A stretch of DNA of 28,370 bases from Pseudanabaenales cyanobacterium (GCA_022360135.1 JAKSDM010001206.1:1-28370); one strand, 5' to 3'; counted from the stretch's first letter, positions 211 through 20,116 are shown. Notes: generated from the letters alone by a model not told the origin. Numbers and translations: made by a program.

Positions 211-380
211 ACAACCGCACTGCAATGGAACAGTCTGCTAAGGGCGAGTGATTTGCAAAAGGTATCTGCGTCCCCGCCTAAGCCGCCCTATTGGACTGGG
301 GTTGAAAACTACCGTTGTCAGAATACCACTTTAGTCGGATACATGATTAAATCCTCGCTCCTTACAATGGACCTGCCAAC

Positions 381-2093: not shown

Positions 2094-2174
2094 ACTGTTG
2101 GGAAAAGGGAAAAAGGAAGGCTATGTTTTTTGATCCGACTTGCTTAATCAAACACAGGGTAGGAGTATTCTAGA

Positions 2175-3977: not shown

Positions 3978-4112
3978 TTGCTTGATTACAGTCTACGTTG
4001 TTCTGCCTGGATGTATTGTGGATATTTCAAAGCACTGATTAAATTTTATGTCAACAAATTAAAACTGTATAGATATCTTATTACTGGGTAGTAGAGCGCA
4101 TCCGAAAAGCTC

Positions 4113-4670
4113 TTATTTTACCCCTAATCTTTTACGTAACCAGGTTGATCCCATGAATAGAAGCGGTGTCATCCAAAGACCATTGAGTATTAAATGAAGT
4201 GGAAGTCTGAAGTAGACGTATAGCGTTAGCAAAACACCATAGGGTGAATCCATATGGTCAATCCAATAAAAAACAGGATTGCTTTCATCCCCAGGTGAGA
4301 TCTTAAGACGGCGTTTAATAAACGAGTTAGGTAGTTCAGATAGGTTAAAAATAAAACCAATGAGTAAGCCATAGAGAATTCCATTAAAGCTACTTAGAAG
4401 AATAATGTTTTTAAGGTTAAATTTTAGACCAATTTCCAACATCTGGAATATCCAAACACTGACCAAATGAGTTAGAGGTAAACTTACCAGACCCCGCCAT
4501 TTTTTGTTGACCCCAAATAGTCCTACATGGATGGGATAGCTGAGCCTGTTAAATAGGGCTGTCTTCCACAAAAGAGCTTCAAAGATACTGGCCAGTAAAA
4601 GAGGAAGTCCTAGCCACACTAGACTTAAAAAGTCATTCTTATATAGATCAAGTGGACTCATTATACTCAT
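4113..4670 (-). CDS. CDP-archaeol synthase (CarS)-like membrane cytidylyltransferase
   Basis: Small hydrophobic protein with ELPNSFIKRRLKISPG...IDHMDS, matching the CarS/CTP_transf_1-type SFIKRRL...G...D-Q/H-x-D signature. Confidence 0.75.
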   Translation of the reverse strand: MSIMSPLDLYKNDFLSLVWLGLPLLLASIFEALLWKTALFNRLSYPIHVGLFGVNKKWRGLVSLPLTHLVSVWIFQMLEIGLKFNLKNIILLSSFNGILYGLLIGFIFNLSELPNSFIKRRLKISPGDESNPVFYWIDHMDSPYGVLLTLYVYFRLPLHLILNGLWMTPLLFMGSTWLRKRLGVK

Positions 4671-4712
4671 GATTTAGATCTTTTTATAACTGCTAAAAGT
4701 TGAAACAATGAT

Positions 4713-5750
4713 ATGCTGCTCAAATCGAAACAATCCAATACCATCGTGACTGATTCTCAAATGAGTGAGTCACGTCTTATGATTGCTCTGATTAACCCTA
4801 AAAGTGGCCAAGGTAAAGCCAGACGAGATTTGAATGTTGTTTTACCCATTTTTGAGAAGAGTAACATCCATCTGCGCGTTGCTGAAATTCAGGGTTCCCA
4901 AATTGTTTGTCAGGGGGTTCGACAATCCTTTCTGAACTTTTTCCAGTCATTAGATCTGGCTACAATTCATGGCATTATTGTGGGCGGAGGAGACGGAACA
5001 GTTCACTCAACAGTAAATGCCTTGATGAGTCGAGCAGATTGGACACAGGCGATTAAAATTCCTATTGGTTTTTTACCCAGCGGCACCGATAATGGTTTGT
5101 GTAAGACGGTTCTAGAACTTTCAGGAGAACCCTATAGTTTGAAGCATGCGGCCCTTCTCATTGCTCAAGGGCGGTTGCGATCGCTTGATATATTCAAAAT
5201 CCATCAGGAGAAACGTACGTTCTACGGCGTACATTCTCTGGCTTGGGGCTTAGTCAGCGACATTGACATCGAATCCAACCACCTCAGATTTCTGGGGCCG
5301 TTCAAAGAATGGATTTATGGATTGGCCTATGTTTTAAGACGTAGATTTTATGCGGGTACGTTACTGTTTGACCCTCAGTTTTCGCTGCAGGCTAAGTCAC
5401 CCATCTTGAGCAACAAACAAACAGATACATTTATTGGCATCTGGGCAGTTAATGTTCCCTGGGCAGGACGAGACCGCCTTTCTACTCCATTCGCCAAACT
5501 CGATGATGGTTTGATCGATTTACTCGTTCTGCGCCAAGGCATTTCAAGAAGGCATCTTTTAGAGCTTTTTATTAAAACAGAAGATGGTTCTCATATTCAT
5601 TGTCCAAAGCTTGAATACTATAAAACCCAAGCTTTAGCATTAAACCCTATCAGCATACCTGGCACTATCGCTATTGATGGTGAAGCGGTTGATTATGGCC
5701 CTATCAGCATTGAGGTTTTACAGAAACTCTGCACCATTTTTTGCCGTTAA
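4713..5750 (+). CDS. Diacylglycerol-kinase-superfamily lipid kinase with eukaryotic sphingosine-kinase-type motifs
   Basis: LINPKSGQGKA (C1), GGGDGTVHSTVNALMSRADW (C2), LPSGTDNGL (C3), SLAWGLVSDIDIESNHLRFLG (C4), DDGLIDL and IAIDGE (C5). Start may be ATG 4761. Confidence 0.85.
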   Translation: MLLKSKQSNTIVTDSQMSESRLMIALINPKSGQGKARRDLNVVLPIFEKSNIHLRVAEIQGSQIVCQGVRQSFLNFFQSLDLATIHGIIVGGGDGTVHSTVNALMSRADWTQAIKIPIGFLPSGTDNGLCKTVLELSGEPYSLKHAALLIAQGRLRSLDIFKIHQEKRTFYGVHSLAWGLVSDIDIESNHLRFLGPFKEWIYGLAYVLRRRFYAGTLLFDPQFSLQAKSPILSNKQTDTFIGIWAVNVPWAGRDRLSTPFAKLDDGLIDLLVLRQGISRRHLLELFIKTEDGSHIHCPKLEYYKTQALALNPISIPGTIAIDGEAVDYGPISIEVLQKLCTIFCR

Positions 5751-5751
5751 T

Positions 5752-6414
5752 TTACTGTTTTACAGTGTCGGTAAAAAGCTGACGCTGTTGTAAATCGATA
5801 GCCGCGATACAAACAGCAGATGCATATAGTTGAATAACATTAGTGATTTGTTTAAGTAGATAGATGGGAAAAATGCTCCATAGCAAGATCTGTCCGGTAT
5901 GGATTAAATCAAGCGGCAGATTAGGCGCGTAATAGTTTAAATACAGCAGTATATAGAACAGCTCATTGCCAAAAATTAAGGCGTCCATAAATCGTTTGTC
6001 GCCGTAATAAAGGTTGAGGAGCCGGTTTTTAGACCAGCGTTTGGTATTTTTATGGTTATGTTCCGCTTGTATAGAGGTTGCCTGTAAAAGATAGTAGTGA
6101 CTGCTGACATCTAGCGCTATGAGCAGAATGAAAATAAGTAGGTATTCTGGATAGAGTTGGGCAAGGATGAAACATAAACCTGTTGTTGCAGCTCGATCAG
6201 TCACCATATCAAGGGTAGCTCCAAACTGGGTTCTCTGATTAAGTCGTTTTGCTGCTTGACCATCGAGTTCATCGAGTAAGAAGGCCATAAGATAAAAAAT
6301 CAAACACCATAACCCATGTCCAAATGTATGAGAAATAAAGCTAATTGCATAAAGAACAACTCTTAAATAGCCAATGATATTGGGTAGCAATAGAAAAATA
6401 TTATTGGACTTCAT
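5752..6414 (-). CDS. CDP-alcohol phosphatidyltransferase, eukaryotic phosphatidylinositol synthase (PIS/CDIPT)-like
   Basis: CDP-alcohol motif DELDGQAAKRLNQRTQFGATLDMVTD, plus PIS-type segments NIFLLLPNIIGYLR, LDVSSHY, HK...N.LL..YY and GNELFYILLYL. Confidence 0.85.
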   Translation of the reverse strand: MKSNNIFLLLPNIIGYLRVVLYAISFISHTFGHGLWCLIFYLMAFLLDELDGQAAKRLNQRTQFGATLDMVTDRAATTGLCFILAQLYPEYLLIFILLIALDVSSHYYLLQATSIQAEHNHKNTKRWSKNRLLNLYYGDKRFMDALIFGNELFYILLYLNYYAPNLPLDLIHTGQILLWSIFPIYLLKQITNVIQLYASAVCIAAIDLQQRQLFTDTVKQ

Positions 6415-6526
6415 ACTCTATATTGTGGATTTGGATAAAGATTGCGACCAGCTTTGATCTTTAGTTACTTAAAGCCATTTTTTTTCTACGGTTACCTAGT
6501 TATTTCTTTCGTAAACCAGTAGGTCT

Positions 6527-7813
6527 TCATAGCCTTATTAAATCATGCGATCGCTGACAAACTGTCTCAAAGAGTTTCTCATACTCGCGTGTAATTTTGA
6601 CGGCATCAAAATCCTGGGCTCTGATTAACGCATTGCGGGCAAGTCTCGCCGCTTGATCAGGATTAGAAATCAGCTGATGAATGGCCCCTGCCAATTTCTC
6701 TGGGCTGCGGATCGGGACTAATAATCCTATTTGATCATCCTCAATGATTTCCTTAGGTCCATAGTCACAGTCTGTGGCAATGACAGGCGTCTGGCAGGCC
6801 ATTGCTTCAACCACAACATGTGGAAAGCCTTCCCATAAGGATGACAGGACAAAAGCCTGAGCTGCCGTCATATATATCCATGGATTCTCAACAAAGCCAG
6901 CTAACTTAACGTATTCCTGAAGCTTTAAAGTTTGGATTTGTACTTCTAAAGTATCTCGGTAATTGCCTTCCCCTAAAATTAGCAGCTTTAAATCCCTGAG
7001 ATGATACTGATGATGACAAAGGTATAAGGCTTGGATCAGATATTCAAATCCTTTTTGTGGGTATAACCGCCCAACAGCCACAATATAACGATCATCGGAG
7101 ACTTGCAGATTGGGTTCAGGCTTATATTTAGAGGATTGAACAGCCTGCTGAATCTGTACAAGATTGGTGGGATTATAAATATAGGTGATCTTCCCTGGAT
7201 TAATTTTATATACTTCTGAAACTTCTCTCGAAATACCCTTAGAAACTGTCAGGATTTTATCTGCTTGACTGTAACTATTCTGAATAATTCTGAATATCAA
7301 CATTTTCAGTATTCGATTCTTGGTAATACTTTTGAGATTAGTTGGAAAGCTATTTCCTTCACGCGCAATCCATTGGACTTTTCGGCTTCCTTGCTGACCT
7401 AAGGCAAAATTTGTCAGAATATTTAAACCTGTCATACTGGTCATGACGATGTCTGGCTGAATTGCCCTGACTAAAGCTTGAATTTGGTAAATTGAGGCTG
7501 GAGTTCGTAACAATCTCGGCAAGAGGCTTTTCAGACTGAAAGAATGAATTGTACTAGGCAAGGCTAAAACATATTGTAACCAGTCAGGTAATTTAGCCGT
7601 TCTGATATCTGCTACAGTCACCAAGTTGAGATATTCGCCAGTTTGGGATAAAAGACCAAGATAAGGGATAAAGCGATCGCGATCGATATACTCTAATAGG
7701 TCAACAATAGTACGCTCAGCTCCCCCACCTGATAAATCTGGCAGGATAAACAGGACTGAAATTTTCTTGGCGTCAGCTAAAGTTTGTTTCTTCACCACTT
7801 TATTGTTATCCAT
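6527..7813 (-). CDS. Glycosyltransferase family 4 (GT-B fold)
   Basis: PDLSGGGAER N-terminal motif, AVGRLYPQKG, FVLSSLWEGFPHVVVEAMAC (Ex7E). Start reassigned to ATG 7813, which overlaps the upstream stop (ATGGATAA); ORF track starts at 7870. Confidence 0.9.
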   Translation of the reverse strand: MDNNKVVKKQTLADAKKISVLFILPDLSGGGAERTIVDLLEYIDRDRFIPYLGLLSQTGEYLNLVTVADIRTAKLPDWLQYVLALPSTIHSFSLKSLLPRLLRTPASIYQIQALVRAIQPDIVMTSMTGLNILTNFALGQQGSRKVQWIAREGNSFPTNLKSITKNRILKMLIFRIIQNSYSQADKILTVSKGISREVSEVYKINPGKITYIYNPTNLVQIQQAVQSSKYKPEPNLQVSDDRYIVAVGRLYPQKGFEYLIQALYLCHHQYHLRDLKLLILGEGNYRDTLEVQIQTLKLQEYVKLAGFVENPWIYMTAAQAFVLSSLWEGFPHVVVEAMACQTPVIATDCDYGPKEIIEDDQIGLLVPIRSPEKLAGAIHQLISNPDQAARLARNALIRAQDFDAVKITREYEKLFETVCQRSHDLIRL

Positions 7814-8633
7814 ATTTCTCATAGCCAAAGAACTCCAGAGCAGGACTTGCTTCACGATTAAATTCATCAATCATTTCATCTGATAGTCTATCTATCTGCC
7901 TTTGATTCACATTTGGCTCTAGTATCTGATTTATGCTCTCCCTATCAAACCAATACTTCCGCCGCTCTTTTCCGAAAATAACTCTGTGTTCCCCTTGTTC
8001 AGTAATTACCTTTTTTGATTTAAATCGAAGCTTTTCTAGTTGGCGAGGACAAACATCTAAGAAGGTAGATAAATCCTCGATAACCTCGAAAGGGTTTTGA
8101 AGAATGTCCTCAAATTTGATCATTTTGAATCTGAGAATAACATCAGCATATCTTTTCATCTCTTCTGAAATCTGATAATACAATTGACCTACTCTGGCTG
8201 CAGTTCTCCCTCTTCTGAGATATCCATCGACTAATGCATAGCCATTTCGAGTAAGTGCTATGAAATACAAATCCGGATACACTTTGAGTAAGAGATCGGT
8301 GAGAAAAATATCTCTATTTACAGATTTGAGGCAGAGTGCTGTATTTGCAATCTGTTCGTGGGTATAGAGTTCTCCCTCAGCAATGAATCTGTCATCAGGA
8401 TGTTTAAGACTCAGTAATTTAAACCTAAACAATTGATTGTCTATGATTCGCTGGTAATCAATGATTTGTTCAGCAAGCAAGCGACAAAACCATAGCGCCC
8501 AAGACCTATAGAATAGTTCTCCAGTCTCGTATATTGGTGAGCAAATTTCAGGATGTGATTGCAATAAATTCCATGCAATATTTGTGCCTCCTCTTGCAAA
8601 ACCACTTATGACGATGACCTTGGTATTCAGCAC
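7806..8633 (-). CDS. Sulfotransferase-family protein (divergent)
   Basis: N-terminal GFARGGTNIAWNLLQSHPEI resembles the 5'-PSB loop (GxxRSGT..L..LL..HP); FIALTRN and IKFEDILQNP match later sulfotransferase segments. GTG start with GGAGGA 9 nt upstream. Confidence 0.7.
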   Translation of the reverse strand: MLNTKVIVISGFARGGTNIAWNLLQSHPEICSPIYETGELFYRSWALWFCRLLAEQIIDYQRIIDNQLFRFKLLSLKHPDDRFIAEGELYTHEQIANTALCLKSVNRDIFLTDLLLKVYPDLYFIALTRNGYALVDGYLRRGRTAARVGQLYYQISEEMKRYADVILRFKMIKFEDILQNPFEVIEDLSTFLDVCPRQLEKLRFKSKKVITEQGEHRVIFGKERRKYWFDRESINQILEPNVNQRQIDRLSDEMIDEFNREASPALEFFGYEKYG

Positions 8634-8956: not shown

Positions 8957-10129
8957 ATGAGCGTGCGACTATTTTCCAGAATCCCCTTAGCATGGCTACA
9001 ACTAACCAGAAATAAGGTCCGTCTCTTAGTCGCTTTGATGGGGATTACCTTTGCAGTTGTGCTCATTTTCATTCAACTTGCCTTTTTGGACTCCCTATAT
9101 GAGAGTCAGACAGCCTTACACAGAAGTCTCAAGGCTGACCTGGTATTGATTAATCCTGAAATGAAGACGTTAGCAAGTAAAAGAAATTTTTCTCGTCAAC
9201 ATTTATATCGCGCTTTAAATTTTGACCAGGTAGCATCGGTTAACTATCTCTATCATGGTCAACAGACCTTTAAATACAAGGGCAGTGCTGGTGGTAAAGG
9301 AATCATTATTGTGGGAGTTAATCCAGAAGCACCACCCTTTGAAATCCCTAATTTTGATCAGCTGGCGCCTCAGCTTAGAACGACAGGTACAGTTTTATTT
9401 GATCAGAATTCTGATCTTAAGGAATATGGCAACATTGTCGAAGATTTGCAATCCGGTAAGCCGATAACTGCAGAGGTCGGAGATCGAAAAGTTTGGATTG
9501 GTGGAGCCGTTGACTTTGCAGGCGCTTCATTTGCAGACGATGGAAACTTGATTGCCAGCAGCGCAACTTTTTTGCAAATTATACCTCATCGTAATGCAGA
9601 TGATATAACCATTGGTTTGATCACGCTAAAACCGGATGTTGACAAACAAAAATTTCTGAATGGAATGGCGGCTCAGTTACCGGAAAATGTTCAAGTAATG
9701 ACGCTTCAAGACTTTATCGATCTTGAAAAACATTACTGGTCTACGAGTGCGCCAATTGGATTCGTTTTTGGTATGGGTGTCCTCGTCGGTTTTCTGGTGG
9801 GGGTAATCATTGTTTATCAAATTCTTTACAACGAAGTTTCTGACCATTTGCCAGATTATGCAGTCCTGAAAGCAAGAGGCTATAAGCATCGTTACTTTTT
9901 AGGGATTCTTTTCCAGGAAGCTTTACTTCTAGCGATCCTGGGTTATATTCCTGGATTCGCCATCTCTTTAGGACTTTATGATGTGACTAAAGACGCCACC
10001 GCTCTCCCCATTCATATGACGTTTCAAAGAGCATCACTGGTGCTTTTACTCACCATTATGATGTGCTTCATGTCCGGCGCTATTAGTATGCGTAAATTGC
10101 GGGAGGCAGATCCAGCAGAACTTTTCTAA
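8957..10129 (+). CDS. devC: DevC-family ABC exporter permease (FtsX-like)
   Basis: RIPLAWLQL...RLLVAL.GI.FAVVLIF.QL, IGFVFGMG, YQILYNEVSDHLPDYAVLKARGY, LREADPAELF. Confidence 0.9.
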   Translation: MSVRLFSRIPLAWLQLTRNKVRLLVALMGITFAVVLIFIQLAFLDSLYESQTALHRSLKADLVLINPEMKTLASKRNFSRQHLYRALNFDQVASVNYLYHGQQTFKYKGSAGGKGIIIVGVNPEAPPFEIPNFDQLAPQLRTTGTVLFDQNSDLKEYGNIVEDLQSGKPITAEVGDRKVWIGGAVDFAGASFADDGNLIASSATFLQIIPHRNADDITIGLITLKPDVDKQKFLNGMAAQLPENVQVMTLQDFIDLEKHYWSTSAPIGFVFGMGVLVGFLVGVIIVYQILYNEVSDHLPDYAVLKARGYKHRYFLGILFQEALLLAILGYIPGFAISLGLYDVTKDATALPIHMTFQRASLVLLLTIMMCFMSGAISMRKLREADPAELF

Positions 10130-10140
10130 ATTTATTTTTT

Positions 10141-10273
10141 GTCACTTGTCACTTGTCACTTGTCACTTGTCACTTGTCACTTGTCACTTGTCACTTGTCA
10201 CTTGTCACTTGTCACTTGTTACTTGTTACTTGTTATCTGACCAATGACCAATGACCAATGACTCATGACTTAT
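10141..10273 (+). repeat. STRR-type heptamer array, bipartite
   Basis: 19 in-phase heptamers: 11x GTCACTT, 2x GTTACTT, GTTATCT, 3x GACCAAT, GACTCAT, GACTTAT. GACCAAT is a rotation of the reverse complement of STRR2 TTGGTCA. Confidence 0.95.
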
Positions 10274-10334
10274 GTCCCTGCTAGTTCGATAACGATCTAA
10301 GTTAATACCTTCTTTGAGCACACTTCATAATACT

Positions 10335-11876
10335 ATGACGGCTCAATCTATTGTTTCAGTTCAGAATCTAAATCACTTTTTTGGAGAAAATACACTCCGA
10401 AAACAAGTTTTATTCGATGTCAATCTTGAGATTCGCCCTAAAGAATTTGTCATCCTGACTGGGCCTTCCGGTTCGGGTAAAAGTACCTTGTTGAGCCTGA
10501 TTGGTTGCTTGCGCTCAGTTCAAACCGGAAGTCTTAAGGTCTTGGGTCAAGAGCTTAATGGGGCTAATAATAGCCAGTTAATCCAGGTCCGTCGTCACTT
10601 TGGCTTTATTACCCAATCCAGTAACCTACTTCATTTTCTGACGGCCCAGCAAAATGTACAGATGTCGCTAGAATTACATCCGGAACTTTCGGGGCAAGAT
10701 AGGCGTACAAAGGCAAAAGCCATTTTGGAAGCAGTTGGATTGGGCGATCGCATTGCCTACTATCCTGATAGCCTATCAGGTGGACAGCGCCAAAGGGTGG
10801 CGATCGCCAGCGCCCTAGTCACCAATCCCAAATTGATGCTGGCCGATGAACCCACCGCTGCTTTAGATCGAAAGTCAGGCCGGAACGTGGTCGCCTTGAT
10901 GCATCGATTGGCAAAGGAGCAGGGAAGCGCTGTCTTGATGGTTACCCACGATAATCGCATCCTTGATCTCGCCGATCGGATCATCAACGTTGAAGACGGC
11001 AAGCTGGGATTAGCCGTTAGTCAAGAACTCTCTATTGCATTACCAGGCTTTAACGCCGCCCTGCTTGAGAAAAGCGATACAAAACCGACCGTCCTCACCT
11101 ATGAAGCTGGCGAGATTATCGTGCGACAAGGTGAAACCGCTACTAAGTTCTATGTCATTCTCGAAGGTGAGGTGGAGATTCTTCAAGAAACCCCTGATCA
11201 ACCCGCCAAACTTCTAAGACGGATGGGGCGGGGAGAATATTTTGGTGAAATTGGTTTGCTGCAAGGAGGTGAACGCACAGCCACAGTTCGCGTCGCCAAA
11301 GATTCAGAAGTCAAAGTTATGGTGATTGAGGAAACGCTTTTTCGACTTCTGATCGCCGATTCTGACCTCACCAATACCGATGTGGCTCGCCGCCTGCATC
11401 AGCGCATCATGACCAGTCACCTGGCGATCGCCTTGCCGAACCTGAGCACAGCTCGCATCACCGAGATTTTAGCTGCGGTGGAGGTGGTTCGATACGGGCC
11501 AAATTCCAATATTGTGCAACAAGGTGAGTCCGCCGATCGGTTTTACTTGATTTCTAAGGGCCAGGTCGCCGTAATTAACCATCAGGACGATGGCCAGGAA
11601 GCCACTCTCCGCACAATGCAAGCGGGTGAATACTTTGGTGAGACCGAGCTAATGAACAGACAAGACTATGGCTTTACGATTCGAGTGCTTCCTGAAGCCA
11701 GTGTTGAAGTCATGGTGTTAGACCGGACAACCTTCTGTAGCCTGATCGTTGAGTCCAATGCCAGCCAAGACAAAGTCGCCACAGTCTTGCGTAACCGCCT
11801 CATCGGCAATACCGAATATCCCTCTGAATCTATCTCCCTCAATCAAAACGCCCTTAAATCACGTTCCTCTCCCTAA
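10335..11876 (+). CDS. devA: DevA-family ABC ATPase fused to two C-terminal cNMP-binding domains
   Basis: Walker A GPSGSGKS, LSGGQRQRV, Walker B LMLADEPT, MVTHD; then GEYFGEIGLLQGGERTATVR and GEYFGETELMNRQDYGFTIR. ATG 10335 preferred over TTG 10314. Confidence 0.9.
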   Translation: MTAQSIVSVQNLNHFFGENTLRKQVLFDVNLEIRPKEFVILTGPSGSGKSTLLSLIGCLRSVQTGSLKVLGQELNGANNSQLIQVRRHFGFITQSSNLLHFLTAQQNVQMSLELHPELSGQDRRTKAKAILEAVGLGDRIAYYPDSLSGGQRQRVAIASALVTNPKLMLADEPTAALDRKSGRNVVALMHRLAKEQGSAVLMVTHDNRILDLADRIINVEDGKLGLAVSQELSIALPGFNAALLEKSDTKPTVLTYEAGEIIVRQGETATKFYVILEGEVEILQETPDQPAKLLRRMGRGEYFGEIGLLQGGERTATVRVAKDSEVKVMVIEETLFRLLIADSDLTNTDVARRLHQRIMTSHLAIALPNLSTARITEILAAVEVVRYGPNSNIVQQGESADRFYLISKGQVAVINHQDDGQEATLRTMQAGEYFGETELMNRQDYGFTIRVLPEASVEVMVLDRTTFCSLIVESNASQDKVATVLRNRLIGNTEYPSESISLNQNALKSRSSP

Positions 11877-11989
11877 ATTTGGGATGTTGGCTGCGAGATT
11901 GGGAATTCTGTAATTTAACATTACCTATTCAACTCAACTACGTTTCCCCTATTGAGCATCGCCGCCTTACAGCCTCGGAGTGAGGATGT

Positions 11990-13225
11990 ATGACGAATAC
12001 CTTGGACATTCAGTGTGTCATCGCTAAGACAATTGTTGATATGGAAATCAGACAATCTCGATTCAAATCCAAAACATGGATGACTATCCTGCTCCTGGCG
12101 GCTGGTGTCCTGACTGCGAATACGCTTTTGCCCACGGGTTTCTTCAAGGTTCGGGAAACTCAACGGAATGTTGTTTCGGAGGTTTCTGCTAGCGAGCCTA
12201 CCCTGACCACGGTAACGGCGCTAGGACGATTAGAACCTCAAGGAGAAATCACTCGTCTATCTGCATCTAGCTCTAATCAGCGTTTGGCTCAAGTGTTGGT
12301 GGGTGAAGGGGATATCGTTCAAGCTGGGCAAGCGATTGCTGTTCTCGACAATATCGATATTCGGAAAGCGGCTCTAGAGGAGGCGCAAGCAAAAGTAAAA
12401 GCTGCTCACGCCCATCTGACTCAGGTCAGCGCCGGGGCCAAGATGGGCGCCATTAATGCTCAACAAAGCAAAATAGTCATGTTAGAGGCTCAATTGGTTG
12501 GGGATATCGAGGCTCAGAAAGCGACTATTGCTCGTCTAGAGGCAGAAGTGCGCAATGCTGAAGTAGACTATCAACGCCATCAGAATCTTTATGATTCAGG
12601 GGCGATTTCAGCCTCTCTGTTTGACACCAAGCGCACCCAAATGGAAACCTTGCGGGAACAGCTTCGAGAAGCAACCGTGACCTTAGAACGAACTGTTAAC
12701 ACGGGTCAAGCCCAAGTTCAAGCTGAAAAAGAAACTCTACAGAGCATTGCTGAAGTTCGCTCAGTTGACATAGCCGAAGCCCAAGCCCAAGTGGATGAAG
12801 CATTGGCGTTAGTGAGCAAAGCAGAGGCAGACTTGGAACTTGCCTATGTGCGATCGCCTGTGGATGGACAAATTTTGAACCTTCACGCCAAAGCGGGTGA
12901 AATTGTGGGCGGCCAGGGCTTTGCTGACATCGGTCAAACTCAACAGATGTATGTCGTGGCTGAAATCTACGAAACCGATATTCGCCATGTGCAGATTGGC
13001 CAAACAGCTGCCATTATTAGTGAATACGGTGGGTTTACGGGCGAACTCAGGGGGGTTGTGAACCAAATTGGCCTGCAAATTGACAAACCTGGCATTTCTA
13101 ATGATGATCCAGCTGCTAAGGCGGATGTCAGGGTGGTGGAAGTCAAAATTCGCCTCAATTCAGAAGACAGTGAGCGAGTCAGACATCTCAATAACCTACA
13201 AGTTCGGGCATCCATTGAAATCTGA
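11990..13225 (+). CDS. devB: DevB-family HlyD-type membrane fusion protein
   Basis: VTALGRLEPQGE, long coiled coil, VRSPVDGQIL, QMYVVAEIYETDI, RVVEVKIRL...NNLQV. GAGGA upstream of ATG 11990 (alternative start 12041). Confidence 0.9.
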   Translation: MTNTLDIQCVIAKTIVDMEIRQSRFKSKTWMTILLLAAGVLTANTLLPTGFFKVRETQRNVVSEVSASEPTLTTVTALGRLEPQGEITRLSASSSNQRLAQVLVGEGDIVQAGQAIAVLDNIDIRKAALEEAQAKVKAAHAHLTQVSAGAKMGAINAQQSKIVMLEAQLVGDIEAQKATIARLEAEVRNAEVDYQRHQNLYDSGAISASLFDTKRTQMETLREQLREATVTLERTVNTGQAQVQAEKETLQSIAEVRSVDIAEAQAQVDEALALVSKAEADLELAYVRSPVDGQILNLHAKAGEIVGGQGFADIGQTQQMYVVAEIYETDIRHVQIGQTAAIISEYGGFTGELRGVVNQIGLQIDKPGISNDDPAAKADVRVVEVKIRLNSEDSERVRHLNNLQVRASIEI

Positions 13226-13246
13226 ATAAAATTCCCAGGGCAAGGA

Positions 13247-13358
13247 TCCAGAATTCAGAATCCAGAATTTAGCTGTCACTTGTCACCTGTCACTTGTCAC
13301 CTGCCACTTGTCACTTGTCACTTGTCACTTGACCAATGACCAATGATCAATGACCAAA
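13247..13358 (+). repeat. STRR-type heptamer array, bipartite, preceded by a third heptamer
   Basis: 3x TYCAGAA (13247-13267), then 8 GTCACTT-type units (13275-13330, variants GTCACCT/GCCACTT) and 4 GACCAAT-type units (13331-13358). Confidence 0.95.
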
Positions 13359-13521
13359 GGATTCTTGCTCAGCCAGCAAGTTCTGGCGTAAGTGGATGCC
13401 CAATAAACGTTTTGGAGGCGAATTCGTGAAGAGTTGATAAACACCAAAATTCTGGCCGCAGGATTCCAGGCGCTATGGGCAATCTAGAACTAATCAAGGC
13501 GCTAGTCTTAGTCAACTCGGA

Positions 13522-14298
13522 GTGATATCGATGCCAACCAGAAAAGTAACGGCCGCCGTCAAAACATTCAGTATGTTGCTCTCATCGGCGACTTTATTGG
13601 TGACTAGTTTGATCTCCCTGCAACCCAGTTATAGTATTGAGTTTCCCTCTACTGGCAACCGAGGCGGTCCCGCTAGAACAACCGGCGGCGGTGTCCGAGG
13701 CGGCGACTGCAGGGATGGCGCGTCCCAAGCGCATCAAGTATTTTCTCTAACTCCGTTAATGCCGTTGAACATAAGCGGCGAATATCAAAATACGTTCGTT
13801 GATGATTCTGTTGTGATGCTGTTCTATGTGCCAGATGGCGTCCGCAATAAGTATGCCGAAGTCTATGTCGAAGATCCCAACACAGGTGAAGTGGTCTATG
13901 AAAGCATTTTCTTCCTGGCCACGCCTCCGAGAATTATGCAGGTGAGTTTCCCAGCTTTTTCGGAGGAAACAGGCGAGACTCTAGAGATGGATAAAGATTA
14001 TCTCTGGGAATTCGCTATTATTTGTGACTTTCGCGATCGTGGCCTTGATATTTATACTTCAGGTTACACTCGACGGGTTGCCCCCCCATCTCAACTGCCC
14101 CCAACATTTGACCAACTGCAGAACTGGACAGTCGCCAGCGCTGATAGCTATGCCCAGGCTCTGATCTGGCAAGAATCTCTGCGGATTCTTGATCATGTGA
14201 AATGTGACTCTCAAGCCGAATGGACAGAGTTTTTAAACTCTGCAGGGCTGGATCAGGCAATCACGCAAGTCAGTCTTGAGCAGTGCCGTGCTGAGTAA
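13522..14298 (+). CDS. DUF928-domain protein (predicted secreted)
   Basis: Signal-peptide-like N-terminus, GGPARTTGGGVRGG motif, L.PLMP, Y.WEF.IICD..DR, YAQALIWQESL; sits directly before a CHASE2 gene, the usual context for DUF928. Confidence 0.75.
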   Translation: MISMPTRKVTAAVKTFSMLLSSATLLVTSLISLQPSYSIEFPSTGNRGGPARTTGGGVRGGDCRDGASQAHQVFSLTPLMPLNISGEYQNTFVDDSVVMLFYVPDGVRNKYAEVYVEDPNTGEVVYESIFFLATPPRIMQVSFPAFSEETGETLEMDKDYLWEFAIICDFRDRGLDIYTSGYTRRVAPPSQLPPTFDQLQNWTVASADSYAQALIWQESLRILDHVKCDSQAEWTEFLNSAGLDQAITQVSLEQCRAE

Positions 14299-14324
14299 AC
14301 CATAAGGGCATTGGACGAATTGCT

Positions 14325-16571
14325 ATGTGGACAACGCTGCGGCAAATTCTCTGGGAATGGCGGGGAGTTGTGATCACAACCCCCAGTGTCGCCAGTCTGG
14401 TGATTTTGCTCCGGTTGGCGGGCTTGTTACAAGCCTGGGAATGGTCCGCCTTTGACCAATATATGCGCCTTCGTCCGCAAGCGCCAAGCGATGATCGAGT
14501 TGTTATTGTTGGTCTGGATGAAAATGATGTTAGATCCATTGGACAAGCCATTATTCCAGACGGTGTTTACGCCGAACTCATCAAGAAACTTCGAGCCCAA
14601 GAGCCACGTGCGATCGGGTTGGATATTTATCGTGACTTACCGGTTGAACCAGGGCACGATGAACTGATTGAGGTCTTCAAAACCACCCCCAATCTGGTGG
14701 GAATTCAAAAAGTGATTGGCGAGGCTGGACGGGACACGATCGCCCCGCCTCCGGTCTTGAAGGAACAGAATCAAGTTGGTGCAAACGATCTGGTAACTGA
14801 CGCTGATAACACAGTGAGGCGTGGATTAGTCTCCGTTAATGATGCAAACGGAGAGACGATCTATAGTTTAAGCTTGTATCTTGCACTGCTCTATCTGGCA
14901 GCTGACGGTATTGCTCCGATCATGCTAGAGGGTAGTGACGATAGTTGGTGGTTAGGTCAATCGCTGTTTAAGCCATTCGAGGCAAACGATGGGGGGTATA
15001 TTCGAGCGGATGCAGGCGGCTATCAGCAACTAATTAATTATCGAGGGCCGACCCAGACCTTTGAAACAGTGTCCCTCATGGATGTCCTGAACAATAAGAC
15101 GCCGCTAGATTGGGCGCGGGATCGGATCGTTTTGATTGGGGCTGTTGGCGAAAGTTTCCAAGATGTTGTCTACACCCCCTATAGCAGTGGTTTATTATCC
15201 ATACCAGAACCCATGTCGGGGGTGGAAGTCCATGCCAATTTCACCAGTCAAATTATTAGCGCTGCGATTGAAGGGCGTCCGCTGATTCAAACCTGGCCTG
15301 AACCTGTAGAGTGGGTCTGGATCCTTCTCTGGTCGGGCGCTGGCGCCACCTTGGTTTGGCAGACTCGGAAACCCGGAAACCTTCACAGAGGTTGGTTGCA
15401 AAGAAGCACTGTAGCAGCGGCAGCGATCGTCATCCTATTTGGTGGCGCCTATGGGGCGTTTGTAACGGGTTGGTGGATTCCTCTAGCACCCGCTTTAGTT
15501 GCCTCAGTTGGAGCCGCTACAGTTGTCACCGGGTATCTTGCCTACACCGCTGGGAATATTCGAAAAACCTTCGGTCGTTACCTGAGCGATGAGATTGTCA
15601 CTAATCTTCTGGAGAACCCAGACGCCCAGAAGTTAGGAGGAGAGAGACGTCGACTCACCATCCTCACCTCTGATTTGAGAGGGTTCACTGCTACCTCAGA
15701 GCGATTATCTCCCGAAGAGGTGCTTAAAGTTCTTAACTTCTACCTGGGGCGCATGACAGACGTAATTACCCGCTACCAGGGAACCATTGATGAGTTTATA
15801 GGCGACGGCATCCTAGTCTTGTTTGGGGCGCCGATCTGCCGAGAGGATGACGCCCAGCGTGCTGTGGCCTGTGCTGTGGCCATGCAGTTGGTAATGATTG
15901 AGGTCAATCAGACCATCCAAATATGGGGTTTGCCACCGTTGGAGATGGGCATTGGCATCCACACGGGCGAAGCGGTCGTTGGCAATATTGGTTCTGAGAG
16001 ACGCACCAAGTACGGTGTAGTTGGAAGTGCAGTAAACCTAACCTACCGGATTGAGTCTTACACCATCGGGGGGGAAATTTTGATTTCCGAGGAAACCCGC
16101 CAAGCGGCGGGATCGATTGTGCAGATTGAGAGACAAAAGGAGGTCCAACCTAAGGGTGTTCGGAGCCCCATCACTATTCATGAGGTCGGTGGAATCGGCG
16201 GCTCCTACAATCTCACCCTAATCCAGGAAGTAGAAACTTTCCTACCCTTGGCTGAAGCAATTTTAGTGCGGTATACTACGCTGCTTGGTAAGCATGTGGG
16301 GAAGACCTACTTCCAAGGATGGTTGATCCAACTTTCGGAGAAGGGTGCGTTAGTGCGCCCTGACTCCGTGGCAGATGCGTTTATGCTTCCTCTAACCAAC
16401 ATCAAACTAAATTTGTTGGGCAAGGGTGAATCGACCGTGATCAGTGAAGATATTTACGCCAAGGTCATAGAAAAACCAACAGAACCAGATAAGTTTTATA
16501 TTCGCTTTACCGCTAAGCCGCCTACCGTTAACACCCAGCTCAACAGTCTTTATCAAGCGCTCAAAGCGTAA
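14325..16571 (+). CDS. CHASE2-domain class III nucleotide cyclase, Cya2-like (guanylyl-type specificity residues)
   Basis: CHASE2 (IGLDIYRD, VLIG, GVEVHA), three TM helices, cyclase SDLRGFT, IDEFIGDG, GIHTG, KYGVVGSAVNLTYRIES; extra C-terminal domain. Confidence 0.9.
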   Translation: MWTTLRQILWEWRGVVITTPSVASLVILLRLAGLLQAWEWSAFDQYMRLRPQAPSDDRVVIVGLDENDVRSIGQAIIPDGVYAELIKKLRAQEPRAIGLDIYRDLPVEPGHDELIEVFKTTPNLVGIQKVIGEAGRDTIAPPPVLKEQNQVGANDLVTDADNTVRRGLVSVNDANGETIYSLSLYLALLYLAADGIAPIMLEGSDDSWWLGQSLFKPFEANDGGYIRADAGGYQQLINYRGPTQTFETVSLMDVLNNKTPLDWARDRIVLIGAVGESFQDVVYTPYSSGLLSIPEPMSGVEVHANFTSQIISAAIEGRPLIQTWPEPVEWVWILLWSGAGATLVWQTRKPGNLHRGWLQRSTVAAAAIVILFGGAYGAFVTGWWIPLAPALVASVGAATVVTGYLAYTAGNIRKTFGRYLSDEIVTNLLENPDAQKLGGERRRLTILTSDLRGFTATSERLSPEEVLKVLNFYLGRMTDVITRYQGTIDEFIGDGILVLFGAPICREDDAQRAVACAVAMQLVMIEVNQTIQIWGLPPLEMGIGIHTGEAVVGNIGSERRTKYGVVGSAVNLTYRIESYTIGGEILISEETRQAAGSIVQIERQKEVQPKGVRSPITIHEVGGIGGSYNLTLIQEVETFLPLAEAILVRYTTLLGKHVGKTYFQGWLIQLSEKGALVRPDSVADAFMLPLTNIKLNLLGKGESTVISEDIYAKVIEKPTEPDKFYIRFTAKPPTVNTQLNSLYQALKA

Positions 16572-16611
16572 CAGCGACAAAAAGTTAGATGACTGCTCTA
16601 GCAGGAAAAAC

Positions 16612-17376
16612 ATGAGGTTACTCTTTTTGGGTTCTGGTTCTGCTTTCACAGTGGGGGCCGACAATTTTCACTCCAACCTACTTCTGATCAGTGAGACGGG
16701 ACGGAAACTACTATTGGACTGCGGTTCCGATATCCGCTTCTCGCTTCATGAGGCTGATTTATGCCATCGTGACATTACAGATATCTATATTAGCCATCTC
16801 CATGCTGATCACGTTGGCGGTTTGGAGTATATGGGATTTAGGGCTCTATTTGATCCGGATTGTCAAAAATCCAATCTCTTTTTGAGTCAAGATCTGGCTG
16901 GAGAGCTTTGGGAAAAAACACTCTCCGGCGGTATGCGTTGTCTTGAGGGAGATATTGCAACCCTTGATACTTTCTTCACCGTTTATCCGATTAAGCCCAA
17001 GGGGCAGTTCCTATGGGAGGGGATTCAGTTCAACTTGGCGCCAGTTATCCATATCAACACCGGATATTTTGTCATGCCCAGTTATGGGCTATTTTTTGAG
17101 ATCGCAGGCGTCAAAATTTTTCTCTCAACCGATACCCAACTTTGCCTGGACGTAGTGGGATCCTATTACGAGCAAGCCGATGTCATCTTTCATGACTGTG
17201 AGACGTCCCAATTCCCCAGTCCTGTCCATGCTCACTATCACCAACTGGTTACCTTACCCGCGGCGATCAAGCAGAAAATGTGGCTCTACGGTTACCAGCC
17301 AGGTTCTCTACCTGACGCCAAACGGGACGGCTTCTGTGGATTTGTCAAACGCGGCCAAACTTTTGAGTTTCTTTAA
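16612..17376 (+). CDS. Metallo-beta-lactamase-fold hydrolase (possible cyclic-nucleotide phosphodiesterase)
   Basis: LLDCG, HLHADH (HxHxDH), STDT, IFHDCET, VHAHY. Overlaps the convergent ziaA stop by 4 nt (TTAA, 17373-17376). Confidence 0.8.
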   Translation: MRLLFLGSGSAFTVGADNFHSNLLLISETGRKLLLDCGSDIRFSLHEADLCHRDITDIYISHLHADHVGGLEYMGFRALFDPDCQKSNLFLSQDLAGELWEKTLSGGMRCLEGDIATLDTFFTVYPIKPKGQFLWEGIQFNLAPVIHINTGYFVMPSYGLFFEIAGVKIFLSTDTQLCLDVVGSYYEQADVIFHDCETSQFPSPVHAHYHQLVTLPAAIKQKMWLYGYQPGSLPDAKRDGFCGFVKRGQTFEFL

Positions 17377-19391
17377 CTCTTTAACACTCGACCAGCATTG
17401 AAAATTGCCAGGAGGGCAACGCCAACATCAGCAAACACAGCTCCCCACAGTGTTGCTAGCCCCACTGCTCCAAGCAAGATGACACCGCCTTTAATGGTTA
17501 GAGCTAGGATGATGTTTTGCCAAACAATGCGGCGTGTTTTGTGAGCGATCTGAATTGCTTCAGCAACCTTGGAAGGGGCATCGGTCATAATCACCACATC
17601 CGCCGTTTCAATCGCCGCATCGGAGCCTAAACCGCCCATTGCCAGGCCCACATCCGCCCTGGCGATCACGGGCGCATCGTTGATGCCATCACCCACAAAG
17701 GCGACTTTGCTATTGGAGTGATTGGCTGTCTGTAGTAACTCTTCTAGCACAGCAACCTTATCTTCTGGCAGTAGTTCCGCCCGATAGCGATCCAGTCCTA
17801 GTTTGCCAGCGATTCTATCTGCAACGGGCTGACTATCACCTGTCAGCATCACGGCTTCAATACCTTGGGTGTGTAACGCTTGAATCGCCTTGCTGGCATC
17901 CTCTTTTAGCTCATCTGCAATGATGATGCGCCCGGTATACTCCCCGTCTACCGCAAGATGAGCTACGGTGCCATCAACGGCGCAGCCATCATGGGCGATC
18001 GCTGCTTGATTCAGCAGCCGTTCATTTCCAGCAATCACAATCTGGCCATTGATCCTGGCGCGAACGCCATGACCGGAAATTTCTTCATAGTCTTTTACTG
18101 CAGACTCATCGACAGGCTGGCCATAAGCATCTCGAATAGACTGAGCCACCGGATGATTGGAATGGACTTCAACTTTGGCGGCTAGTTCCAGCAATTGCGC
18201 CTGACTTAACCCATTGTGGGACACCACCTCAGTCACTTTGAACTTGCCTTTTGTCAGTGTTCCAGTCTTATCAAAAACAACAGTTTTGAGTTGGGTTAGG
18301 ACATCCAGAAAAGTTGATCCTTTGACCAGAATACCGCGCTTAGCGGCTCCGCCCACACCGCCGAAATAGCCCAGGGGAATACTAATCACCAATCCACAAG
18401 GACAGGAAATGACTAGCAAAATCAGGGCTCGATACACCCATTCCTCATGGGAGGCGCCCGAAATCAGCAGCGGCGGCAGCATGGCAATAGCCAAGGAGAG
18501 CACCACAACAACAGGTGTGTAGTAGCGGGCGAAGCGAGTGATGAACTTTTCGGTTGCGGCCTTCTTGCTGCTGGCGGTTTCAACCAAATCTAGGATCTTG
18601 ACGATAGATGACTCTTCAAATCGCTTAGTCACGCGCAGCGTTAGCACGCCAGACTGATTGATCATGCCCGCCAGAATGGTTTCACCCACCTTTACGGTGC
18701 GAGGTGTGGATTCACCTGTTAAGGGTGAGGTGTCTACCTGGGACTTGCCATCAAGAATTTCTCCATCAAGGGGAATCTTTTCACCCGGTTTGACCCGAAT
18801 GATGTCTCCAACCGCAATTACCTCAGGGGAAACGGGTTTGACTTCACCGTTGATTTTCAAGTTAGCGATATCAGGTCGAACCGCCAGCAGCGACTTAATC
18901 GAATGGCGAGATTGCCCTACTGCAAACCCTTGAAACATCTCACCAACCTGGAAGAATAGCATCACTGCAACTGCTTCCGGCAATTCATGGATAGCGATCG
19001 CCCCCAATGTGGCGATCACCATCAGAAAATTCTCATCAAAAATACGCCCCCGTAAGATGTTCCGCCCTGCCGCAGTCAGTACACTCCAACCACTGATCAG
19101 ATAAGCCGTAAGCAAGATCGCATATTCTGCAATCGAAAAGGGCGTATGGTGTAGAAAATCCTGGAAGAACAGGCCGATGAGAAAGAGAACTAAGGCAATG
19201 GCGAATGGGGTTAGTTCTGCTCGCAAGTTGAAATCACCATCGTCATAACCATGGCTATGGTCATGACCACAACCATAGTCATGACTGCGATCGTGGCTAT
19301 GATTGTGGCTGTGGTCATGGCTATGATCATGGCTGTGGTCATGACTATGGCAGGCTGAACAGGAGTGGGCGGAAGATCGCGGTGCTGTCAT
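17373..19391 (-). CDS. ziaA: P1B-type heavy-metal (Zn/Cd) exporting ATPase with His-rich N-terminus
   Basis: TGES, SCPC, DKTGT, HP, GDGINDAP; (HSHD)n N-terminus. ATG 19391 preferred (ORF track TTG 19406). Confidence 0.9.
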   Translation of the reverse strand: MTAPRSSAHSCSACHSHDHSHDHSHDHSHNHSHDRSHDYGCGHDHSHGYDDGDFNLRAELTPFAIALVLFLIGLFFQDFLHHTPFSIAEYAILLTAYLISGWSVLTAAGRNILRGRIFDENFLMVIATLGAIAIHELPEAVAVMLFFQVGEMFQGFAVGQSRHSIKSLLAVRPDIANLKINGEVKPVSPEVIAVGDIIRVKPGEKIPLDGEILDGKSQVDTSPLTGESTPRTVKVGETILAGMINQSGVLTLRVTKRFEESSIVKILDLVETASSKKAATEKFITRFARYYTPVVVVLSLAIAMLPPLLISGASHEEWVYRALILLVISCPCGLVISIPLGYFGGVGGAAKRGILVKGSTFLDVLTQLKTVVFDKTGTLTKGKFKVTEVVSHNGLSQAQLLELAAKVEVHSNHPVAQSIRDAYGQPVDESAVKDYEEISGHGVRARINGQIVIAGNERLLNQAAIAHDGCAVDGTVAHLAVDGEYTGRIIIADELKEDASKAIQALHTQGIEAVMLTGDSQPVADRIAGKLGLDRYRAELLPEDKVAVLEELLQTANHSNSKVAFVGDGINDAPVIARADVGLAMGGLGSDAAIETADVVIMTDAPSKVAEAIQIAHKTRRIVWQNIILALTIKGGVILLGAVGLATLWGAVFADVGVALLAIFNAGRVLKS
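19251..19349 (-). repeat. 12-bp-period coding repeat encoding His-rich (HSHD)n tract
   Basis: Protein HSHDHSHDHSHDHSHNHSHDRSHDYGCGHDHSH. Confidence 0.9.
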
Positions 19392-19416
19392 GACAGTAAA
19401 GTCCAAAATACGACTG

Positions 19417-19442
19417 AATATCTGAGAGCCTATTCAGGCATG
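19417..19442. promoter_or_regulatory. SmtB/ZiaR-type 12-2-12 operator upstream of ziaA
   Basis: AATATCTGAGAGCCTATTCAGGCATG has the TGA-N8-TCA core and resembles the zia operator as I recall it (AATATCTGAG...TTCAGG). Candidate -10 TATCAT on minus strand at 19440-19445. Confidence 0.75.
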
Positions 19443-19618
19443 ATATAGCAGAAACCCTACATGTCCTTACGGGATCTTCCACAGCTTTCAGCAATTCTCA
19501 TTTTAAGATTTCATGAGATTAAAACCCTGGCTCCAAGAGGGGTTGGCTATTCTTGAAATAAAGTTGGATTACTGAAACGCCGTAAAATTGTTTCAAACTT
19601 ATTTCGGCTGCAAAGTTC

Positions 19619-20020
19619 TTATGAAGCCGATTCGTCTAAGTGCTCCGCCACTTCTCGGTAAAGATTGATGACATGGTGATCAGCCAGTCGATAGTAAACA
19701 TTTCGGCCTACTTTGCGGTAGCTGACTAAGCGCAGCGTGCGGAGGAGTCGGAGTTGGTGGGATACGGCCGATTCACCCATCTTCACCAGCGCCGCCAAAT
19801 CACAAACGCACAATTCCTGCTTCGCTAGCGCTGAAATCAATTTTAGGCGGTTAGGATCGGCCAATACCCCAAAAAATTCAGCCATCCGTTGCGCTTTTTC
19901 TGTGGGTAAAATCTCTGGCTGAACCTGGCGAACATTGTCCATATGAACCAGAGACGATTCACAGGCCGGCGTCCCTGATAAATGCATTAGAGGTTGTTCC
20001 AATTTGTTAACATGACTCAT
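19619..20020 (-). CDS. ziaR: ArsR/SmtB-family Zn-sensing repressor
   Basis: ELCVCDLAA...SAVSHQLR, alpha5 site DHH...EHLDE, N-terminal Cys (ACESSLVH). Start uncertain (20020 or 19987; ORF track 20077). Confidence 0.9.
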   Translation of the reverse strand: MSHVNKLEQPLMHLSGTPACESSLVHMDNVRQVQPEILPTEKAQRMAEFFGVLADPNRLKLISALAKQELCVCDLAALVKMGESAVSHQLRLLRTLRLVSYRKVGRNVYYRLADHHVINLYREVAEHLDESAS

Positions 20021-20116
20021 GACTGCTAACCAACGACGCCCTTTTGGCATTGAGTAATCCAGCGACTTCAAAAGCAAGTTTGATGCTGTAAGGGCGTAGT
20101 TGAGTCCAAATACATT

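Follow-up and report, generated by a model that had tools for sequence, protein, structure and literature searches.

Side by side in a Pseudanabaenales cyanobacterium: a Cya2-type guanylyl cyclase cassette and a DevCAB exporter whose ATPase carries cyclic nucleotide-binding domains

In a 28,370-nt stretch of DNA from a Pseudanabaenales cyanobacterium (GCA_022360135.1 JAKSDM010001206.1:1-28370; the whole analysed stretch is hereafter called the window), six co-oriented genes on the plus strand span 8957-17376 and appear to form two transcription units side by side. The first, devC-devA-devB, encodes a MacB-type tripartite exporter of the ATP-binding cassette (ABC) class, whose ATPase, DevA, is fused to two cyclic nucleoside monophosphate (cNMP)-binding domains. 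The second, DUF928-cya2-MBL, encodes a DUF928 protein, a Cya2-type guanylyl cyclase and a metallo-beta-lactamase (MBL)-fold hydrolase of the Apyc1 family. We consider it very probable that this trio combines a sensor, a synthase of cyclic GMP (cGMP) and a likely phosphodiesterase, and probable that DevA senses some cyclic nucleotide through the first of its two domains. That the nucleotide bound there is cGMP made by the neighbouring cassette is a more tentative proposal. The original prediction, made from the sequence of the window, had read the locus as a self-contained circuit in which lipid export may be gated by cGMP; such gating is plausible, if far from secure, but the term self-contained was too strong, as the organism's own genome (90% complete, 7.74 Mb) gives 17 cyclase-domain and 22 cNMP-domain hits.

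On its sequence, the cyclase in the window is an orthologue of Cya2. Its catalytic domain aligns without gaps with that of Synechocystis Cya2 (PDB 2w01; E 6e-83), and all eight residues of the Cya2 active-site set (D448, R450, E488, D492, G562, N569, R573 and K608; PMC6005667) are kept, here as D450, R452, E490, D494, G564, N571, R575 and K610. The set includes the metal-binding Asp pair D450/D494, the catalytic residues R452, N571, R575 and K610, and a purine-specifying pair that is Glu-Gly (E490/G564) and not Lys-Asp/Thr. Cya2 has been found to raise cGMP, not cyclic AMP (cAMP), in vivo and to prefer GTP in vitro (PMC4284465, citing Ochoa de Alda 2000 and Rauch 2008), and the single exchange E488K switches it to an adenylyl cyclase (PMC5995499). 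cGMP is thus a well-supported prediction for the product, because of this homology to Cya2 and not because of the binding-domain argument used in the original prediction. Along the protein, CHASE2 (PF05226) covers residues 23-341, with hydrophobic segments on either side of it, and the class III catalytic domain (PF00211) covers residues 443-613. Among the 17 cyclase domains of the genome, 14 have Lys at the Glu position and two could not be read; only the Cya2 of the window has Glu.

The hydrolase is, with good support from its sequence, an Apyc1-family MBL protein and a predicted cNMP (cGMP) phosphodiesterase. Its residues 4-251 match positions 6-244 of the 250 in the Pfam model PF23023 (Anti-Pycsar_Apyc1) at 80.4 bits, against a cut-off of 50, and its best solved relatives are Apyc1 proteins (PDB 7t28, 7u2s and 7u2r; E 2e-25 to 1e-20). 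Across 28 orthologues, conservation is at least 95% at the HxHxDH motif and the downstream metal ligands (H62, H64, D66, H67, H147, D174 and H206). Apyc1 itself is a metal-dependent cNMP phosphodiesterase of relaxed specificity with bacterial homologues that are active on cNMPs, and its discoverers asked whether the copies found in hosts regulate "other cNMP-based signalling systems" (PMC9117128). The original prediction had pointed to class II phosphodiesterases, a membership that we reject: the enzyme has no PDEase_II match, Pfam returns only Apyc1, Lactamase_B_2 and Lactamase_B, and the NCBIfam model for cyclic-nucleotide phosphodiesterases reaches 30 bits where 400 are required. The two groups have only the fold in common.

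To follow the conservation of the trio, 86 loci with Cya2-like genes were gathered from cyanobacterial genomes other than the window's, as a first set of 46 and a more divergent second set of 40. DUF928 lies directly 5' of the Cya2 orthologue on the same strand in 36 of the 46 loci of the first set and in about 13 of the 40 of the second (tblastn), and in 18 of all 86 an MBL gene follows the cyclase directly on its 3' side and in the same orientation. The arrangement recurs in many cyanobacterial families. In a tree of 46 cyclases, all 17 that are linked to an MBL gene, the window's included, have the Glu/Gly signature, and the Lys/Thr and Lys/Ser paralogues have no MBL gene. In an evenly drawn sample of 150 genomes, an MBL orthologue is present in 10. 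All of these belong to the 45 genomes with a Cya2-type catalytic domain, and four of the 10 have the two genes side by side. The DUF928 protein itself has an N-terminus resembling a signal peptide and two conserved cysteines, C63 and C168. A second DUF928-CHASE2 pair occurs elsewhere in the genome (contig C1531:958-2668, minus strand), again with DUF928 directly upstream; the pairing is not cyclase-specific, because the output part of the CHASE2 protein on that contig is of another kind. In Nostoc punctiforme, too, a DUF928 gene and a CHASE2 gene have been noted side by side (PMC5587647). We infer from this recurrence that DUF928 may be a periplasmic partner of CHASE2 sensors. As a separate observation, one of the other loci encodes, 4.4 kb upstream of the DUF928-cya2 pair, a fusion of a cNMP-binding domain with a FeeM-like N-acyl amino acid synthase (L011:4545-5627).

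The putative reader, DevA, has an intact phosphate-binding cassette in its first cNMP domain (FGEIGLLQGGERTATV, residues 310-325) and a degenerate one in its second (FGETELMNRQDYGFTI, residues 441-456), where Tyr replaces the Arg. In domain 1, E312 and R321 are invariant in 48 DevA homologues, and the motif FGE...RTATV is near-invariant over more than 70 members of the DevA-cNMP family. The domain 2 cassette is degenerate in the window's subclade and intact (RTATV) in more distant members, and in the window's protein this domain is probably structural. Such fusions are common in cyanobacteria, with more than 100 protein clusters that have one, two or three to four cNMP domains. Three homologues of 755-807 residues (P0005, P0007 and P0029) apparently have three or four such domains in a row, with four, three and four cassette motifs respectively, and the gene for P0005 stands beside genes for a type III polyketide synthase (PKS), an inositol-1-phosphate synthase and a CDP-alcohol transferase. 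In a confident AlphaFold 2 (AF2) model of DevA (pLDDT 87, pTM 0.76), the ATPase domain aligns with the ABC domain of MacB at a TM-score of 0.89, normalised to the length of the target, and the C-terminal half matches the PKA regulatory subunit, the tandem resembling PKA/PKG regulatory subunits. A fold search with this model (Foldseek) gave domain-level matches only, and no solved protein with the whole architecture.

The cassettes of the genome's other cNMP domains were read from the 22 domains located by Pfam, an initial regular-expression survey having proved too noisy and been replaced. Only four of the 22 keep the cassette Arg, which makes cyclic nucleotide binding improbable for most of the genome's cNMP-like domains. 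Three of the four are RS-type and belong to CRP-sized proteins, and DevA domain 1 alone is RTA-type. Furthermore, the sole Glu-type cyclase of the genome, Cya2, and its sole RTA-type site are encoded by neighbouring units.

A second line of evidence comes from the other Cya2 cassettes. In a search of their neighbours with a home-built cNMP-domain profile, checked afterwards with Pfam, a gene with a cNMP domain was the next neighbour of the Cya2 cassette in 10 of the 86 other loci, in five families, where about 0.8 such cases would be expected by chance from the density in the window's genome (19 such genes in 7.74 Mb). Seven of these loci have MscS-type bCNG channel genes, in four families and on the same strand as cya2. 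They lie directly 3' of cya2-MBL at L017:11861-13324 (family f9) and, in two copies each, at L026:4918-7838 and L030:11391-14335 (f27), and directly 3' of cya2 at L018:11316-12773 (f2) and at L130:6885-8378, L132:6972-8465 and L136:2439-3956 (f26). In the fifth family (f7), a stand-alone tandem-cNMP protein of about 355 residues is encoded divergently from DUF928-cya2 (L044:12245-13297, L045:12111-13175 and L046:11952-13088), and the one cassette-like motif found in each of these proteins lacks the Arg. All the cyclases at the 10 loci are of the Glu/Gly type, and every bCNG cassette there reads PRTA[TS]V. DevA domain 1 is slightly nearer to these bCNG domains than to the cNMP domains of its own genome, by a margin too small to count. 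The physiological role and the ligand of bCNG channels have not been established (PMC13591265); their adjacency to Cya2 points to cGMP. Taking these loci together, it is possible, and we offer it with reserve, that cyanobacterial Cya2 cassettes travel with their own membrane-transport effectors (bCNG channels elsewhere, DevCAB with its cNMP-domain ATPase here), so that cGMP made in response to a periplasmic cue would gate transport directly and the Apyc1-type enzyme would serve as the off-switch.

The exporter can be placed with more detail. DevA, DevB and DevC all score above the cut-offs of their family models, and their genes are contiguous in the order C-A-B; no TolC-like gene is present in the window. 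Upstream of devC, on both strands of window 367-8633, lies a lipid-building cluster with genes for a B12 radical SAM enzyme, an acyl-AMP ligase, a CarS-like cytidylyltransferase, a lipid kinase, a CDP-alcohol transferase, a GT4 glycosyltransferase and a sulfotransferase. The exporter unit would be part of this cluster, which is probably the source of its substrate, and the neighbouring genes suggest that this substrate is a lipid. At nine independent loci with DevA-cNMP fusions, the gene order is always devC-devA, with devB alongside where the contig allows, and the surroundings are again lipid-biosynthesis genes, among them those for fatty acyl-AMP ligases, PKS, an aminotransferase-type lipid synthase, inositol-1-phosphate synthase and CDP-alcohol transferases, together with phosphonate, desaturase and hydroxylase genes.

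From these components a mechanism can be proposed. A periplasmic cue would be sensed by CHASE2, probably together with the secreted DUF928 protein; the Glu/Gly-type cyclase domain would then make cGMP, and the Apyc1-family enzyme would hydrolyse it and so reset the signal. Domain 1 of DevA is predicted to bind a cyclic nucleotide, and domain 2, being degenerate, would probably be structural. The C-terminal regulatory domains of MetN and MalK offer an analogy for the most likely link between the two units, in which cGMP from the cassette would bind DevA domain 1, alter the closure of the two ATPase domains and thereby tune export. The sequence comparisons show the identities of the genes, their motifs and their patterns of conservation, whereas the ligand, the direction of the regulation and the exported substrate are what we infer.

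The strongest rival to this proposal is juxtaposition without coupling, in which cassette and exporter are independent, DevA responds to cAMP or to a pool set by other cyclases, and the cassette has its targets elsewhere. We regard this as a possibility to be taken seriously, since a whole group of results weighs against the link from cassette to exporter. Firstly, no cyclase or MBL gene occurs within 10 kb at any of the nine independent DevA-cNMP loci, all of which lie in lipid clusters. (At a related DevCAB locus, L147, a downstream gene considered as a cyclase proved to encode a HAMP/TPR protein.) Adjacency of exporter and cassette is confined to the window's lineage, namely the window, a near-identical ENA contig and a sister metagenome-assembled genome (MAG), MO_188.B28. 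This MAG has devB-DUF928-cya2-MBL, with a 92%-identical devA 5' end on another contig, and the contig break inside devA removes the cNMP part, so that the fusion could not be confirmed there. Nine sampled genomes of the same family all lack the MBL gene, and none has a DevA-cNMP fusion at E <= 1e-95. Within the locus itself, the exporter is parted from the cassette by a 305-nt spacer with a separately conserved upstream region; about 90 nt of it, next to DUF928, are also kept in the sister genome (L009), an indication that the trio may have a regulatory region to itself. cAMP could come from the Lys-type (adenylyl-type) cyclase domains, of which the genome has at least 14. Nor does the binding site decide for cGMP. 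The original prediction had argued that Thr after the cassette Arg favours cGMP, but this is a weak rule: PKG and PKA regulatory domains score about equally against the DevA tandem, and no sequence rule separates cGMP from cAMP binding. HCN channels, which prefer cAMP, also have RTA, and the motif was taken as a lead only. Finally, co-occurrence at the level of whole genomes is confounded by lineage. Each of the five DevA-cNMP genomes and of the 10 MBL genomes in the sample of 150 has a Cya2-type cyclase, compared with 45 in the sample as a whole, and a Glu-type CHASE2 cyclase is present in every one of the eight fusion-bearing genomes that were tested; for the fusion this adds little beyond lineage, because the families concerned nearly all have Cya2.

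Two results speak against juxtaposition: cNMP-domain genes recur beside Cya2 cassettes in five other families, far above chance, and the one Glu-type cyclase and the one RTA-type site of this genome adjoin. The original prediction had called for co-occurrence of the cNMP-DevA with the cyclase/MBL pair in other genomes and had named an adjacency unique to this genome as grounds for giving the idea up. The adjacency is in fact found in one lineage only, which comes close to that outcome, and the link is partly rescued because the Cya2 cassettes of the five other families adjoin different cNMP-binding genes. Of the writer, eraser and reader that it had seen as clustered, the writer and the eraser are well founded, and the reader's place among them rests on an adjacency confined to this lineage.

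It is improbable that the cNMP-like domains of DevA sense no cyclic nucleotide at all and have instead some other ligand or a purely structural or dimerising function, as is the case for many CRP/FNR-type domains. The missing Arg of domain 2, and its absence from 18 of the 22 cNMP-domain hits in the genome, would fit such a role, but the full FGE...RTATV of domain 1 over more than 70 members argues for selection on nucleotide binding. Least probable of all is that the MBL protein has an activity other than that of a cNMP phosphodiesterase, such as that of a lactonase or of a nuclease resembling RNase Z, or that the trio serves antiphage defence in the manner of Pycsar. In favour of these readings, identity to Apyc1 is low, there are weak N-terminal RNase Z matches and PADLOC gives generic, domain-level PycC matches for the cyclase, but the Apyc1 match is full-length and above the Pfam cut-off, the RNase Z matches are confined to the first ~70 residues, synteny with a characterised guanylyl cyclase is conserved, the cyclase has a CHASE2 sensor and the purine Glu/Gly pair, no gene for a TIR or pore/membrane effector is present and the MBL protein has no PADLOC hit.

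The features of the locus are collected in Table 1. As originally described, the devA, DUF928, cyclase and hydrolase genes all lie on the plus strand with the predicted domains (open reading frame (ORF), Pfam and NCBIfam evidence), the gaps of 26 nt between DUF928 and the cyclase and of 40 nt between the cyclase and the hydrolase are correct, and the two cassettes read as stated; what that description had passed over is devB and the spacer, which stand between devA and DUF928. Alternative starts exist for devA (TTG at 10314) and for DUF928, whose longest ORF begins at a GTG at 13522. In the spacer, three heptamer tandem arrays adjoin one another (CAGAATT x3, TGTCACT x8 and TGACCAA x4; window 13249-13357); the near-identical ENA contig has three more TGTCACT copies and the sister genome keeps the TGACCAA array only. 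Beyond the cassette, a convergent gene for a heavy-metal-type P-type ATPase (window 17373-20077, minus strand) overlaps the MBL stop codon by 4 nt, and a gene for an ArsR/SmtB-type (HTH_5) regulator lies upstream of it on the same strand. An Rfam scan of the window found no RNA family, and promoter and terminator scans gave nothing beyond shuffled expectation.

Table 1. Coordinates of the exporter and cassette features in the window, with the model matches that identify them
Feature	Coordinates	Strand	Description and evidence
devC	8957..10129	+	FtsX/MacB-type permease of exporter; TIGR01185 415 bits (cut-off 290); PF02687
devA	10335..11876	+	MacB-type ABC ATPase with two cNMP-binding domains; TIGR02982 347 bits (cut-off 296), residues 13-231; two PF00027
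cNMP domain 1 phosphate-binding cassette	11241..11288	+	FGE...RTATV, intact
cNMP domain 2 cassette	11634..11681	+	degenerate, Tyr at Arg position
devB	11990..13225	+	membrane fusion protein of exporter; TIGR02971 337 bits (cut-off 129)
devB-DUF928 spacer	13226..13530		305 nt; heptamer repeat arrays 13249-13357; conserved stretch just 5' of DUF928
DUF928	13531..14298	+	PF06051 86 bits; signal-peptide-like N-terminus
Cya2-type guanylyl cyclase	14325..16571	+	transmembrane segment, CHASE2, three transmembrane segments, class III catalytic domain (~15627-16229), C-terminal extension; PF05226 240 bits, PF00211 88 bits
MBL-fold hydrolase, Apyc1 family	16612..17376	+	PF23023 80 bits (cut-off 50); HxHxDH at H62-H67

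Although Cya2 was verified as a bacterial guanylyl cyclase in 2000, reviews list few bacterial targets of cGMP, and Slr2100 as the only known cyanobacterial cGMP phosphodiesterase (PMC4284465, PMC10117731). Against this background, the locus offers three candidates. The Apyc1-family enzyme may be the cognate phosphodiesterase of Cya2, which would answer the question about host Apyc1 homologues raised in PMC9117128; DUF928 may be the periplasmic partner of CHASE2 sensors; and cNMP-domain transport proteins (bCNG channels, and DevA here) may be cGMP effectors. If the proposed link is true, DevCAB would be the first known case of cGMP gating in an ABC exporter and would give a concrete answer to the role of cGMP in cyanobacteria. 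Furthermore, a MacB-type exporter gated by a second messenger would represent a new mode of ABC transporter control, tying the export of envelope lipids to an external signal. A literature search, incomplete in its coverage, found no paper on DevA-cNMP fusions, the Cya2-MBL pair or Cya2-bCNG operons.

Cya2 of Synechocystis sp. PCC 6803 (sll0646) has the same architecture as the window's cyclase, a similar length (756 residues, against 748 in the window) and the identical active-site set, and in a likely Synechocystis genome (G023, locus L039) the MBL gene lies directly downstream of Cya2, as it does here. Over the full length, however, the window's cyclase and the likely Synechocystis orthologue share about 54% identity, and their neighbours differ, the window having a clear DUF928 gene upstream and the Dev exporter beyond it. 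The hydrolase shares with Apyc1 of phage SBSphiJ and its bacterial homologues the Pfam family, a full-length alignment, the HxHxDH motif with downstream His/Asp ligands and a GG[LI]E motif. However, it is chromosomal and conserved beside a guanylyl cyclase in cyanobacteria, not phage-borne, and its role is likely to be signal turnover rather than immune evasion.

Similarly, the bCNG channels, which are MscS-like with a C-terminal cNMP domain, resemble DevA in being membrane transport proteins with an RTA-type cNMP domain beside Cya2 cassettes, although they are another class of transporter and none is encoded in the window. The importers MetNI and MalFGK2 have a ligand-binding domain placed C-terminally on the ABC nucleotide-binding domain, a layout able to keep two ATPase domains apart, and MetN and MalK are among the Foldseek matches of the DevA model. 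Their regulatory folds are unrelated to that of DevA, however, and both are importers subject to trans-inhibition by substrate, so that the comparison is one of analogy only. Finally, the closest likeness for the exporter as a whole is to the heterocyst glycolipid exporters DevBCA/HgdBC and to MacAB-TolC (type VII ABC), given three subunits above their family cut-offs, the MacB-like fold of the ATPase and the linkage to lipid-synthesis genes. A heterocyst glycolipid is an unlikely substrate here, because the nearest named relative is a Leptolyngbyaceae MAG. The dev gene order in Anabaena is B-C-A, whereas that in the window is C-A-B, and unlike its counterpart in DevBCA, the DevA described here extends by about 280 C-terminal residues, which make up its two cNMP domains.

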